Source: a virus
Taxonomy: Duplodnaviria > Heunggongvirae > Uroviricota > Caudoviricetes
IMG/VR virus record: IMGVR_UViG_2541047931_000013
Length of the DNA stretch: 7,842 nucleotides
Reading direction: 5' to 3' (one strand)
A program made the position numbers and the translations under genes. Below are positions 2,468 to 4,681 of this stretch, one piece after another (the stretch's first letter is position 1; each line of letters begins with the position of its first letter). The notes beneath the pieces are model-generated. The model saw nothing but the letters and a program-made list of their open reading frames with translations. It did no database searches and was not told where the DNA came from.

Positions 2468-2851
2468 GTGCGTTCCGCAGCGTTACGCCGTGAACTGAAA
2501 GCCCGTATCACCGTTGCCAGCTACTTTAAGCCGATGTGTGCCGCGCTGGAGGCGTACCGCGCTGAACTGGGTAAAAACACGCTCCAGCACCACTACACCA
2601 CGGAAGCCAATATGCTGGCGCGTATCGTGCTGGGTGGCATGAATGCAAAACAGTGGGCGCAGGCGAACGGCATCACAGGCGAACCACGCGACCACATGAG
2701 CACGCTGCAGCTTGAGCACCTTTCTTACCTTGAGCAGAGCAATATCACGCTGATTGAGTTAGGCCAGGACTACCACCAGCGGAAAGCTGAATTAATTCGT
2801 CTTTCGCAACGCTGGTTAGCCCGCCGCATGGAGGTGAGCAGCCATGCGTAA
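2468..2851 (+). CDS. antirepressor C-terminal-domain protein; probably the C-terminal half of the AntA-like gene split by an amber codon
   Basis: Same reading frame as 2108-2449 (2468 minus 2108 = 360). EANMLARIVLGGMNAKQWAQANGI...RDHMSTLQLEHLSYLEQSNITLIELGQ resembles the C-terminal region shared by phage antirepressors. Own start is a GTG with no SD at proper spacing. Confidence 0.5.
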   Translation: MRSAALRRELKARITVASYFKPMCAALEAYRAELGKNTLQHHYTTEANMLARIVLGGMNAKQWAQANGITGEPRDHMSTLQLEHLSYLEQSNITLIELGQDYHQRKAELIRLSQRWLARRMEVSSHA

Positions 2852-3401
2852 ACCTGTCTTTTATGCCGGTCGCACTGAAATCTCTGTCATTAAATTCGAT
2901 GACATTCAGGTGCGCATAGTGAGTATCAACGGCGAGCCGTGGTTTGTTGGCGCTGATGTGTGTGCCGCGCTGGAAATCAGCAATGTTACTGATGCCGTTT
3001 CAGTTCTGGATAACGATGAGGTAATGACCCTAGCTTTAACCGAGGGTCATTCCGGTAAGCGTGGTGGTGCCAGAAGCTGGAATGTTGTCTCTGAATCAGG
3101 TTTCTACAAACTGATCGCCCGCAGCCGTAAAGCTTCCACACCAGGCACATTTGCGCACCGTTTCAGTAACTGGGTATTCCGCGAGGTGATTCCTTCAATC
3201 CGCAAAACGGGGGGTTATGGTGTTCCGTTTGCCATGCTGAATGATTTCAGTAAACGTCAGGCTGCATATCAACAGGAAGCCAGCAAACGCGGTTACAGGT
3301 TACAGCAATGCAAAGAGGCAAAAGATGCACTGGAACGAGAAGAGCGGGCGCTATGGCGTAAATATCAGCCTGATTTTCTGGAGGGTGAAAGCAATGTGTA
3401 A
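2844..3401 (+). CDS. Bro-N domain protein (phage antirepressor-like)
   Basis: VIKFDDIQVRIVSINGEPWFVGADVCAALEI...FYKLIARSRKASTPGTFAHRFSNWVFREVIPSIRKTGGY is the Bro-N signature. SD GGAGGTG lies 7 nt upstream. The ATG overlaps the previous stop. Confidence 0.75.
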   Translation: MRKPVFYAGRTEISVIKFDDIQVRIVSINGEPWFVGADVCAALEISNVTDAVSVLDNDEVMTLALTEGHSGKRGGARSWNVVSESGFYKLIARSRKASTPGTFAHRFSNWVFREVIPSIRKTGGYGVPFAMLNDFSKRQAAYQQEASKRGYRLQQCKEAKDALEREERALWRKYQPDFLEGESNV

Positions 3402-4431
3402 CGATCCGAACGTTACAGAAAGAAAAAGCGCCCCGTTGCTGGATAACAGGCAAAACAAAGGCGACCGGGATAGGTCGCCAGTGGGAACAAAGGAAATCAA
3501 ACGCATCGCCAACAATGCCAGATTTGCGGCTGGTGGGCAATGTGATCAGTGTGCTGGCTTGCTGGTGGGCTATTCCTGCTCTTTAGCATCGCCATACTGC
3601 GATGTTTTCCAGGTATGCGATTCCATTTTTGTGCGCCTGTACTCTTTTAAGAACTTCTCAAGGACAAACGCACATGGCGCAAATCTTTCCTGTTCTTGTT
3701 CGCTTACCGCATTTTTGCGTTGTTTTTTCCTGGATGAGGATAATTTCTTTAATGATTTGTCAGTCATCGTAGATACCTGTAACCCTGTGCGCCACAGTTC
3801 ACCGCACCACGGCGCTGGTGATGGTTACTCCTGCTCTTTGGCCTTCCGGCGCTGTTCATATTTTAATTTGCGTCCACAGGCATCTAAGACCCATGCGGAA
3901 AAATTAGCACTAGGATTAGTTAATTTTTCTTGTTCAACACTGGCATCAATCCCATCTATAAGCTCGTGCGGGAATCGAATATTTTTCTTTGCTGATTTGT
4001 TGTTTGTGTTTCCGCTAGACATTGGTACACCTCACTTAAATGGATTTGATGGGCGCACACAATACAGCAAAAAAAGTGAGAAGTTAAGTATTGACATGTG
4101 CGCACACATGATTTTAATCTGTGCGCACAGTTTGGGTTGCATTGCTCAAATTAAGCAACGCCCCGCAGTGCTCGCAACACATGCAGGGCGTCTAACCACC
4201 AACGATAGAAAGCGTATCGAGGTAGCTATGTTAAATCATACCACACACCCGCAAGGGCGGGACTCGCACAACCTGAATAAATACATCTGGCGTTTTATCG
4301 CCCTGAGCACCGCACAACCACGCGTAATACACATCGAGGCCGCCAGCGAACAGGAAGCCCGTCAGCAATCCCCGGCTGGCTGCGTGATGGTATTTACTGC
4401 CCGCATCCGTCAGGGGGAATACTATGCGTGA
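3394..4431 (+). CDS. alternative model: long + strand ORF (345 aa), possibly a shadow of - strand genes; mutually exclusive with the - strand small ORFs and with the 4228 start
   Basis: ATG at 3394 with SD GGAGGG 8 nt upstream, overlapping the Bro-N stop (ATGTGTAA). Frame open for 345 codons. The product is about 5% Cys and F/S/L-rich in its middle part, which looks like antisense translation of K/E/A-rich coding. Confidence 0.25.
   Translation: MCNDPNVTERKSAPLLDNRQNKGDRDRSPVGTKEIKRIANNARFAAGGQCDQCAGLLVGYSCSLASPYCDVFQVCDSIFVRLYSFKNFSRTNAHGANLSCSCSLTAFLRCFFLDEDNFFNDLSVIVDTCNPVRHSSPHHGAGDGYSCSLAFRRCSYFNLRPQASKTHAEKLALGLVNFSCSTLASIPSISSCGNRIFFFADLLFVFPLDIGTPHLNGFDGRTQYSKKSEKLSIDMCAHMILICAHSLGCIAQIKQRPAVLATHAGRLTTNDRKRIEVAMLNHTTHPQGRDSHNLNKYIWRFIALSTAQPRVIHIEAASEQEARQQSPAGCVMVFTARIRQGEYYA
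3445..3479 (-). terminator. putative Rho-independent terminator for - strand transcripts
   Basis: Perfect 7-bp GC-rich stem GGCGACC (3460-3466) / GGTCGCC (3473-3479) with 6-nt loop. On the - strand it is followed by UUUGUUUUG. No T-tract on the + strand side. Confidence 0.4.
3570..3767 (-). CDS. small basic protein (65 aa), paralog B of a tandemly duplicated pair; possible DNA-binding protein
   Basis: ATG at 3767-3765 with AGGT 7 nt upstream. C-terminal AKEQE shared with the 3825-4022 product. An interrupted inverted repeat CTGTG-CGC-CACAG (3785-3797) lies just upstream. Confidence 0.35.
   Translation of the reverse strand: MTDKSLKKLSSSRKKQRKNAVSEQEQERFAPCAFVLEKFLKEYRRTKMESHTWKTSQYGDAKEQE
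3825..4022 (-). CDS. small protein (65 aa), paralog A; putative ribbon-helix-helix-like repressor divergent from the replication operon
   Basis: ATG at 4022-4020 with GAGGTG SD 5 nt upstream. KNIRFPHELIDGID...NFSAWVLDACGRKL has a strand-helix-helix layout resembling CopG/Arc-type proteins. Candidate -10 TATTGT / -35 TTAACT on the - strand at 4059-4064 / 4082-4087. Confidence 0.4.
   Translation of the reverse strand: MSSGNTNNKSAKKNIRFPHELIDGIDASVEQEKLTNPSANFSAWVLDACGRKLKYEQRRKAKEQE
4053..4130. promoter_or_regulatory. back-to-back divergent sigma70-like promoters overlapped by palindromic operator-like sites
   Basis: + strand: -35 TTGACA (4091-4096), 16-bp spacer, -10 TTTAAT (4113-4118). Perfect palindromes TGTGCGCACA (4097-4106, in the spacer) and CTGTGCGCACAG (4119-4130, over the predicted start). 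Half-site GCGCACA at 4053-4059 overlaps the predicted - strand start. Confidence 0.5.
4228..4431 (+). CDS. small protein (67 aa), first gene of the replication operon; possibly Icd-like (unverified recollection)
   Basis: ATG at 4228 with SD GAGGT 4 nt upstream. Product MLNHTTHPQGRDSHNLNKYIWRFIALSTAQPRVIHIEAASEQEARQQ... has ordinary composition. Its stop overlaps the next start. About 100 nt downstream of the predicted + promoter. Confidence 0.45.
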   Translation: MLNHTTHPQGRDSHNLNKYIWRFIALSTAQPRVIHIEAASEQEARQQSPAGCVMVFTARIRQGEYYA

Positions 4432-4681
4432 TGAACGATTTATTCTTCTGGAGCAAAAATTCAGTGAAGCGCCAAAAAATGAAATTGATGCTCTTTTGCA
4501 TATCGCGAATATGCTAAAAGTAGCAACGTTCCTTATAGTTTCGAATCTGGAGCATGAAACGGCGTTAGATATACTGAACAGTGCTGTCGATTATTCTGAA
4601 TATATTGCCGAGGATAAATACAGGCAATTACCAGATTTGTTAGCCCATAAATATAAAGAAGAACCTCACACCGGGAAATAA
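4424..4681 (+). CDS. hypothetical protein (85 aa), low-GC
   Basis: ATG at 4424 with SD AGGGGG 6 nt upstream, overlapping the upstream stop. Sample lines hand-count at roughly 35-38% GC. No family recognised. Confidence 0.55.
   Translation: MRDERFILLEQKFSEAPKNEIDALLHIANMLKVATFLIVSNLEHETALDILNSAVDYSEYIAEDKYRQLPDLLAHKYKEEPHTGK

Follow-up and report, generated by a model that had tools for sequence, protein, structure and literature searches.

We analysed a stretch of 7,842 nucleotides of viral DNA (Caudoviricetes; IMG/VR record IMGVR_UViG_2541047931_000013), hereafter the window, in which a 345-codon open reading frame (ORF) of the plus strand runs antisense across two small minus-strand genes, the probable gene orfA and ylcI, crosses the putative divergent promoter/operator region beyond them together with the leader hairpins, and ends in an Icd-like domain. 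The minus frame of ylcI is under purifying selection, while the plus frame opposite to it is open, in phase with the Icd-like domain and started at the junction with the upstream Bro-N gene; the Icd-like domain itself is common to this ORF and to the Eta protein of P4. The initial annotation of this DNA had presented the two readings as mutually exclusive, a view which cannot be kept, since the minus-strand gene is very probably real and the plus frame very probably selected to stay open. In its widest form, our proposal is that a repressor gene, together with its partner, is fully embedded in a translated ORF of the opposite strand in a conserved, bona fide antisense overlap, that the synonymous codons of the repressor are shaped to avoid stops in that ORF, and that ribosome-coupled read-through would be the switch by which a widespread family of Enterobacterales satellites overrides and silences the repressor. 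We put this forward tentatively, with slightly less than even confidence. In the literature on YlcI/YnfO/DUF3950 or on the "Icd-like protein" we found nothing describing such an arrangement.

A long plus-strand frame ends in an Icd-like domain

Plus frame 1 is free of stops from 3241, within the Bro-N gene, to 4431 (396 codons), and from the ATG at 3394 it encodes 345 amino acids, as the initial annotation had reported. GGAGGG precedes this ATG, which overlaps the Bro-N stop codon (3399-3401) in the junction ATGTGTAA; the strong Shine-Dalgarno sequence (SD) and the start/stop overlap described earlier are thus both present, and the long ORF is predicted to be translationally coupled to Bro-N. 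Random sequence had been expected to stay open so long only rarely. Indeed, given the base composition, 275 open codons in 3402-4227 have a probability of ~5e-7, and shuffling produced a stop-free sequence in 0 of 20000 cases.

The end of the frame contains a nested short ORF (plus strand, 4228-4431) with its own SD and ATG, which is called by the PGAP annotation pipeline and encodes a 67-amino-acid Icd-like protein. This protein (4228-4428) matches the NCBIfam model NF033153 (Icd-like) with 68.6 bits (cut-off 25; E 3.5e-19), and in the 345-amino-acid product the match is confined to residues 297-340. The forms starting at 3394 and 4228 have the same frame and a common stop (4429-4431), which is overlapped by the next gene with its ATG at 4424. 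A tblastn search of a phage collection with the Icd-like protein matched one induced-prophage record (16.5 kb).

The plus frame is kept open across genera

For the comparative analysis, 37 loci of other genera were gathered with the YlcI protein alone; because the loci were sampled by a protein of the minus strand, bias from gene callers is excluded. The two readings had been said to have common third codon positions, and coordinate arithmetic confirms this for both minus-strand ORFs. Inside ylcI, this shared-third antisense frame was stop-free in 33 of the 37 loci, while synonymous shuffles of ylcI led to an expectation of 20.7 +/- 2.2 such loci and never exceeded 28 in 2000 trials. Between 1 and 11 stops were present in each of the remaining antisense frames. 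Moreover, synonymous choices that would create a plus-strand stop were depleted in comparison to a control set of 22 ordinary genes of the same loci: T stood before CA codons in 4/105 cases in ylcI versus 24.7% in control genes, and T or C before TA codons in 1/17 versus 62%. Among 65-codon windows of the control genes, 17% were stop-free in the shared-third antisense frame.

The openness extends beyond ylcI on both sides. Of 36 loci, 16 had no stop in the 100 codons beyond the ylcI stop (other two frames: 1 and 2), and 26 had none in the 59 intergenic codons (other two frames: 4 and 0); in most loci, these flanking stretches hold no minus-strand gene able to account for it. Antisense ORFs reaching 300-723 codons result, also in the AT-rich genera Arsenophonus, Proteus, Morganella and Xenorhabdus. 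The frame is followed by an Icd-like domain in 27 loci, and in 21 of these the two are in phase, compared with one third expected by chance, with at least 10 different spacer lengths, all congruent modulo 3. A start codon with a good SD overlapped or abutted the stop of the upstream plus-strand gene in 20 of the 24 loci with a long ORF, the junctions being of the ATGA, TAATG and ATGnnTAA types. Loci without icd mostly had short antisense ORFs. We also picked E. coli loci by the OrfA protein, and all 11 contained plus-strand ORFs of 309-805 codons ending in an Icd-like domain, even though they cover different repressor alleles and operator sets.

In three Pectobacterium loci (L013, L014 and L016) icd and the antisense frame are not in phase; there the antisense frame is nevertheless open across icd, runs into the frame of the following gene and yields ORFs of 292-300 codons.

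We conclude that the plus frame is, in all likelihood, selected to remain open, and the comparison of loci indicates that both its phase with icd and its start at the gene junction are under selection too. As these three features hold across genera, the segment 3394-4431 of the plus strand is taken as a putative eta-like read-through ORF. It had been suggested that homologs of the long product, conserved in divergent elements, would speak against the minus-strand genes. This rule is misleading, because long plus-strand ORFs do exist across genera and the minus-strand gene is real as well.

The ylcI gene obeys the code of the minus strand

The gene opposite to the open frame (minus strand, 3825-4022; 65 amino acids) belongs to the YlcI/YnfO (DUF3950) type and is a putative immunity repressor. 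Its coding part (3828-4022) matches NF041551 (YlcI_YnfO_N) with 59 bits (cut-off 30; E 3.5e-16) and Pfam DUF3950 (PF13132) with 28.3 bits (cut-off 25), and it is preceded by a strong SD, GAGGTG. Homologues form 115 clusters across Enterobacterales, and R16, F17, P18, F41, S42, W44, V45 and C49 are invariant in their alignment; the family pattern RFP ... NFSxWV.DAC within a protein of ~60-70 amino acids is present. The structure of the product is predicted to be ribbon-helix-helix-like, and a profile search of PDB sequences gave no match.

As the third positions are common to both frames, we assessed which code they follow in a codon alignment of 33 distinct ylcI genes of other genera. Where the minus codon is four-fold and the plus codon two-fold degenerate, purine/pyrimidine polymorphism occurred in 11 of 11 columns, at a mean minor fraction of 0.23, and such transversions change the plus-strand amino acid (K/N, F/L, H/Q, C/W, R/S, I/M). 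In the opposite situation, with a two-fold minus codon and a four-fold plus codon, transversion polymorphism was rare (0.087) and found mostly at Ile codons. The ratio of nonsynonymous to synonymous polymorphism (pN/pS) was 0.31 in the minus frame and 0.44 in the plus frame, and both GC and AT skews change sign exactly across 3500-4024. Thus, ylcI is under purifying selection in the minus frame and the common third positions obey the minus-strand code; we have little doubt that it is a genuine gene. With a recognised family, purifying selection, candidate operators and a terminator of its own, it bears out the earlier suggestion of a small, divergent, repressor-like module on this strand.

A probable second minus-strand gene and the terminator

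The second, probable gene, orfA (minus strand, 3570-3767), would encode a basic, helical protein of 65 amino acids and lies 57 nucleotides downstream of ylcI in the same phase. Its homologues (38 clusters, 58-74 amino acids) are found in Escherichia only and always stand 57 nucleotides after a ylcI-type gene, even where the ylcI allele is just 35% identical to that of the window; in ylcI loci of other genera orfA is not present. In locus L002, which was picked by DNA similarity, orfA is intact on the minus strand although PGAP left it unannotated. We consider that orfA is probably coding. Both minus-strand ORFs had been credited with good SDs, which applies to ylcI; the SD of orfA is weak (AGG). 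An AlphaFold2 model of its product is of low confidence (pLDDT 66).

Protein searches with the products of both strands, the check proposed at the outset, gave unequal results. The plus-strand product was recognised at its Icd-like C-terminus alone and YlcI by its family models, while OrfA had no Pfam or NCBIfam match and was assigned to phrog_21027, a PHROG of no assigned function. The idea that the two ORFs are copies of a tandem repeat was dropped, because BLASTP finds no similarity between their products; the sequence common to both genes amounts to ~20 nucleotides at their 3' ends and one 17-mer. We also considered ylcI/orfA as a type II toxin-antitoxin pair and set this aside, as orfA has no match to a toxin family and is absent from the ylcI loci of other genera.

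The minus-strand unit had also been given its own terminator, and a terminator-like hairpin with a T-run after it is indeed found at 3479-3460. The whole Rho-independent element (minus strand, 3450-3479) reads GGCGACC-TATCCC-GGTCGCC, then TTTGTTTTGC.

In Xenorhabdus and Morganella (L036 and L038) ylcI is followed, on the minus strand and in phase with it, by a gene of 113 amino acids with a CxCx5CxH (SWIM-like) motif. This gene replaces orfA, ~220-570 nucleotides downstream of the ylcI start, and the plus frame is open across it as well.

Candidate operators co-vary with YlcI

The putative promoter of the icd-primase operon (plus strand, 4091-4118) was read by eye as a -35 element TTGACA (4091-4096), a 16-nucleotide spacer and a -10 element TTTAAT (4113-4118), and TTGAC is kept at that place in most loci. 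It is accompanied by three candidate operators. O1 (TGTGCGCACA, 4097-4106) is located within the promoter spacer and is conserved in position and copy number, O2 (TGTGCGCACA, 4120-4129) comes directly after the -10 element, 23 nucleotides from O1, and O3 (TGGGCGCACA, 4050-4059) adjoins the ylcI start. The layout is conserved across loci: a -35 element TTGAC(A/G) is directly followed by an operator of the form GTGT-N-ACAC, with a second copy at +23 nucleotides and a third by the ylcI start.

The core of the operator co-varies with the YlcI residues that precede the IRFP strand, and each pairing recurs in different genera. AKKN pairs with TGTGCGCACA, (G/L/Q)YKG with TGTTTAAACA, TTKG with GTGTAT(A/G)TGCAC and AKKH with GTGGGTNCACAC. 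This co-variation resembles heteroimmune repressor/operator cassettes and suggests that YlcI may bind these sites.

Between promoter and icd lies a structured mRNA leader (plus strand, 4160-4219), which consists of hairpin 1 (4160-4189), the element TCTAACCACCAAC (4191-4203) and hairpin 2 (4203-4219); the latter abuts or encloses the SD (GAGGT) of the Icd-like ORF. Alignment and RNAalifold revealed compensatory changes in 8 of 13 pairs. From Escherichia to Morganella and Xenorhabdus the leader keeps two hairpins, a GC one and a small one, and the motif TCTAACCAC(C)AAC. No Rfam family matches the leader, the whole window has no Rfam hits at gathering score, and C4 and isrK are not found in 3300-4500 even at E <= 10. 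A C4/CI RNA would have been expected on the 5' side of icd.

A model of translated read-through over the immunity module

We propose that in the quiescent state leftward transcription of the minus-strand immunity module, made up of ylcI and probably orfA, proceeds as far as the terminator at 3479-3450. YlcI, as a repressor of the ribbon-helix-helix type, would occupy the TGTGCGCACA-type operators O1-O3 which bracket the -35 and -10 elements, shut the promoter of the icd-primase operon (icd-like, a hypothetical gene, DUF4222 and the DUF927 primase) and so keep the island quiescent. The 345-codon ORF would be the counterpart of P4 eta, and the nested 67-codon ORF with its ATG at 4228 that of P4 kil. 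The short form would be made from the internal, repressor-controlled promoter, whereas the long form would be translated only on transcripts arriving from the upstream alpA/ant/bro operon.

After induction, ribosomes that finish Bro-N at its stop (ATGTGTAA) would be passed on and re-initiate at 3394. What matters then would be the act of translation, and not the peptide: ribosomes following RNA polymerase could guard ~830 nucleotides of antisense-oriented RNA, which would otherwise be untranslated, from polarity or termination, and this read-through would carry transcription into icd and the replication genes whatever the state of the repressor. The convergent passage would also be expected to lower ylcI expression. 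The minus and plus readings may thus be alternatives in time, and not in coding. If the model is true, a plus-strand stop that is silent on the minus strand should block induction. We regard this full two-strand model, an eta/kil-type read-through over an antisense repressor module, as somewhat more probable than not.

The plus-strand peptide and other readings of the long ORF

The act of translation could be conserved for the sake of its product. The long protein might be an Eta-like form of the Icd/Kil division inhibitor, with an N-terminal extension that affects how active or stable it is or where it is localised. The open frame and its start at the gene junction suit such a role equally well, P4 Eta, whose C-terminal domain is the same, is indeed translated in the account given by PMC10111431, and the extension would always carry a functional Icd-like domain. 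However, the extension shows no amino acid conservation between genera and ranges from ~250 to 800 codons with unrelated inserts, and inside ylcI the plus-strand amino acids vary freely, including at two-fold sites, in the 33-gene codon alignment. Outside the Icd-like part, the 345-amino-acid product has no family match in Pfam or NCBIfam.

Two apparent peptide motifs, KTKA..GRQ and RLTTN/SNHN, were examined as candidates for conserved peptides and rejected, because they are the terminator and the leader hairpin, read in frames that vary by locus. KTKA..GRQ in the plus frame of relatives is the A-run and GC hairpin of the minus-strand terminator, which in the window is read in another plus frame, as QNKGDRDRSPV. 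GRLTTN and ASNHN are both CTAACCAC(C)AAC after the covarying leader hairpin, and a one-nucleotide indel within the CTAACCAC element is compensated upstream. Since conserved nucleotide elements are read in different plus frames, it follows that selection keeps openness, phase and initiation, and not the sequence. The extension as a working protein therefore seems to us unlikely, and the earlier picture of an atypical Cys-rich protein whose sequence matters is not borne out, as no amino acid constraint is seen in the plus frame.

Less probable still is that only the minus strand codes and that the long frame has no function, the shared-third antisense of K/E/A-rich genes being poor in stops and gene callers extending the Icd-like gene upstream. 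The composition of the plus product is indeed of the antisense type: residues 60-210 contain 14.6% S, 11.3% F, 10.6% L and 7.3% C, so that the reported richness in S, F and L is confirmed and the Cys content is higher than the ~5% given before. The absence of family matches outside the Icd-like part and third positions that follow the minus frame's code fit as well, as does the PGAP annotation of NZ_CP051738, which has just the minus-strand genes and the short icd. On the other hand, the frame is open across ~440 nucleotides without a minus-strand gene, and the openness recurs in diverged, AT-rich genomes in which the other two frames hold 3.6-5.7 stops. Nor would a functionless frame explain why synonymous codons that create stops are scarcer than in the control genes, why indels leave icd in phase, or why an SD and a start codon are conserved at the upstream gene's stop, in loci sampled by a minus-strand protein. 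We consider this explanation improbable.

That only the plus strand codes, for an atypical Cys-rich protein of 345 amino acids with both minus-strand ORFs spurious, we regard as hardly credible: in its favour are the length of the ORF, a good SD, the start/stop overlap and many database "homologues", but YlcI/YnfO is a curated family scored above cut-off and strongly conserved across genera, substitutions obey the minus frame's code, and ylcI has a ribbon-helix-helix-like model, co-varying operators, its own SD and a terminator.

Several points weigh against the read-through model as well. The arrangement is not obligatory, as icd is out of phase in 6 of the 27 loci and a few loci contain stops. 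Among ylcI genes without a neighbouring icd, 5 of ~8 clusters are stop-free in the plus frame, so the stop deficit inside ylcI may be partly compositional or ancestral. The loci are phylogenetically related, hence the nominal P values are optimistic and the independence of the observations is overstated. For orfA, the coding test, which compared pN/pS between the frames and scored transversions at third positions common to both, had too few informative sites. The divergent promoter of the initial annotation, visible by eye as TTGACA-16 nucleotides-TTTAAT, was not recovered by a consensus promoter scan, which reported none here. Translation of the long ORF is itself deduced from sequence conservation alone, Rho as the terminator of untranslated read-through is a guess, and the excess of C over G in the plus transcript is modest. 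Finally, the specific termination mechanism of P4 cannot act here, because RNAs of the CI/C4/isrK type were not found.

Island context

From 2369 on, the window shares 99.3% identity with E. coli SCU-105 (NZ_CP051738), where the counterpart is part of an island adjoining a tRNA-Gly gene. Copies in E. coli number roughly 1,800. In NZ_CP051738, the 5' part carries on the plus strand, in this order, integrase, a hypothetical gene, an AlpA-type helix-turn-helix gene, AntA/B and Bro-N. Two small minus-strand genes come after Bro-N, and then, again on the plus strand, Icd-like, a hypothetical gene, DUF4222, the DUF927 primase, SSB and ProQ/FinO. The island is a satellite of the P4-like or PICI-like (phage-inducible chromosomal island) kind, and its organisation fits the satellite zones of integration, Bro/immunity and replication (PMC10111431). 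The Bro-N domain gene of the window (plus strand, 2844-3401) matches Pfam Bro-N with E 5e-18, and the start of the long ORF overlaps its stop at 3399-3401.

On the 5' side of 2369 collinearity with NZ_CP051738 is lost, so the island is mosaic. The AntA/AntB-family gene is broken by a nonsense codon at 2447-2449 (TAG in the window, GAG in NZ_CP051738) and thereby split into ORFs 2108-2449 and 2468-2851. Over 3394-4431 the two sequences differ at a single position, 3622 (T in the window, C in NZ_CP051738), which lies inside orfA and alters one residue of its product. Rfam int-alpA RNA scored above the gathering threshold in three related islands (L003 521-588, L033 5206-5275 and L006 6021-6088) and had no match at gathering score in the window.

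Consequences for annotation

The expectation that annotation pipelines would miscall this region proved right, as PGAP and NCBI calls are inconsistent between genomes. PGAP calls the minus-strand genes in NZ_CP051738, while NCBI records (P0043, P0076, P0132 and others) contain plus-strand ORFs of 300-480 amino acids under the name "host cell division inhibitor Icd-like protein". In L002, a plus-strand "incomplete Icd-like" pseudogene is placed by PGAP at 2992-3337, over the orfA homologue and abutting ylcI. In L003, icd is annotated as 134 amino acids with its start against the ylcI start.

Public databases thus hold hundreds of "Icd-like proteins" of 300-480 amino acids, and homology-based pseudogene calls stand opposite to real small genes. 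The PHROG label "transcriptional repressor" on Icd-like proteins (phrog_6196, phrog_1743) probably stems from an old P4 annotation, "cI gene product". Both this label and Pfam Ash rest on translations across regulatory regions, and the confusion spreads.

Comparison with known systems

Convincing selection on both strands of the same bacterial DNA is rare and often disputed. The comparative signature found here is that the minus frame constrains amino acids and the plus frame constrains openness, phase and start alone, and for such a two-strand case a mechanistic precedent exists in P4. In P4 (NC_001609), eta is ORF199 and its start overlaps the stop of ORF88, an alpA homologue, in the sequence ATGA. 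Residues 22-146 of Eta constitute the Pfam Ash domain (PF10554), whose coding stretch overlaps the Rfam C4 (CI RNA) and isrK (seqA-like) matches, and residues 146-193 match NF033153 (E 1.2e-20). According to the summary in PMC10111431 (after Forti et al. 1999), a promoter is located inside eta and its transcripts are terminated via CI/seqA interaction. The same source describes Kil as a truncated form of Eta. Full-length Eta is there said to be made only on transcripts of the upstream late promoter, its translation being coupled to the alpA homologue and preventing immunity termination, so that downstream genes are expressed. Background on CI, seqA and seqC is outlined in PMC4825925.

The window resembles this design in several respects. 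Its long and short ORFs, like eta and kil, have a common frame, stop and C-terminal Icd-like domain. As in P4 eta, the long ORF begins in an overlap with the stop of the preceding gene, and the ORF covers immunity determinants and an internal, putative promoter upstream of a primase operon. There are differences as well. The immunity determinants of P4 are RNAs of the same strand (CI, seqA, seqC), whereas the window has neither a CI/C4/isrK-type RNA (Rfam) nor Ash PF10554 (Pfam), and its long ORF runs antisense through one or two protein genes with operators. The upstream partner is Bro-N in the window and the alpA homologue in P4. A tblastn comparison of P4 with the window's Icd-like protein gave no match at E <= 1e-3, and the relation between the two is visible through the NCBIfam model alone. 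What is new relative to the eta/kil design of P4 is the presence of antisense-embedded protein genes in place of immunity RNA. This suggests a route by which P4-like or PICI-like satellites may have swapped RNA immunity for a protein repressor while retaining an override of the eta type.

In P4 (L041; minus strand, 8171-8767), Pfam Ash is a translation of the region which encodes CI RNA and seqA. Some E. coli elements (loci L045 and L050, protein P0042) combine a ylcI/orfA module with a CI-RNA/Ash module, one after the other, within a single uninterrupted plus-strand ORF of 486-805 codons ending in an Icd-like domain.

In the immI region of P1 (c4 antisense RNA, icd and ant), a small Icd-type gene heads an immunity-controlled operon, as in the window. 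The downstream gene is an antirepressor in P1, whereas the genes downstream in the window are replication genes, and, unlike immI, the window has no C4 RNA (Rfam). The NCBI name "Icd-like" presumably derives from this P1 region.

The closest systems also include ribbon-helix-helix repressors with divergent promoters, such as Arc/Mnt of P22, CopG and the ParD-type antitoxins. Finally, as in excludons and other convergent overlapping units, transcription units of opposite strands overlap and each is expected to oppose the expression of the other. Unlike in excludons, the units here overlap completely, and the antisense transcript forms an open frame which is apparently translated and is kept stop-free.

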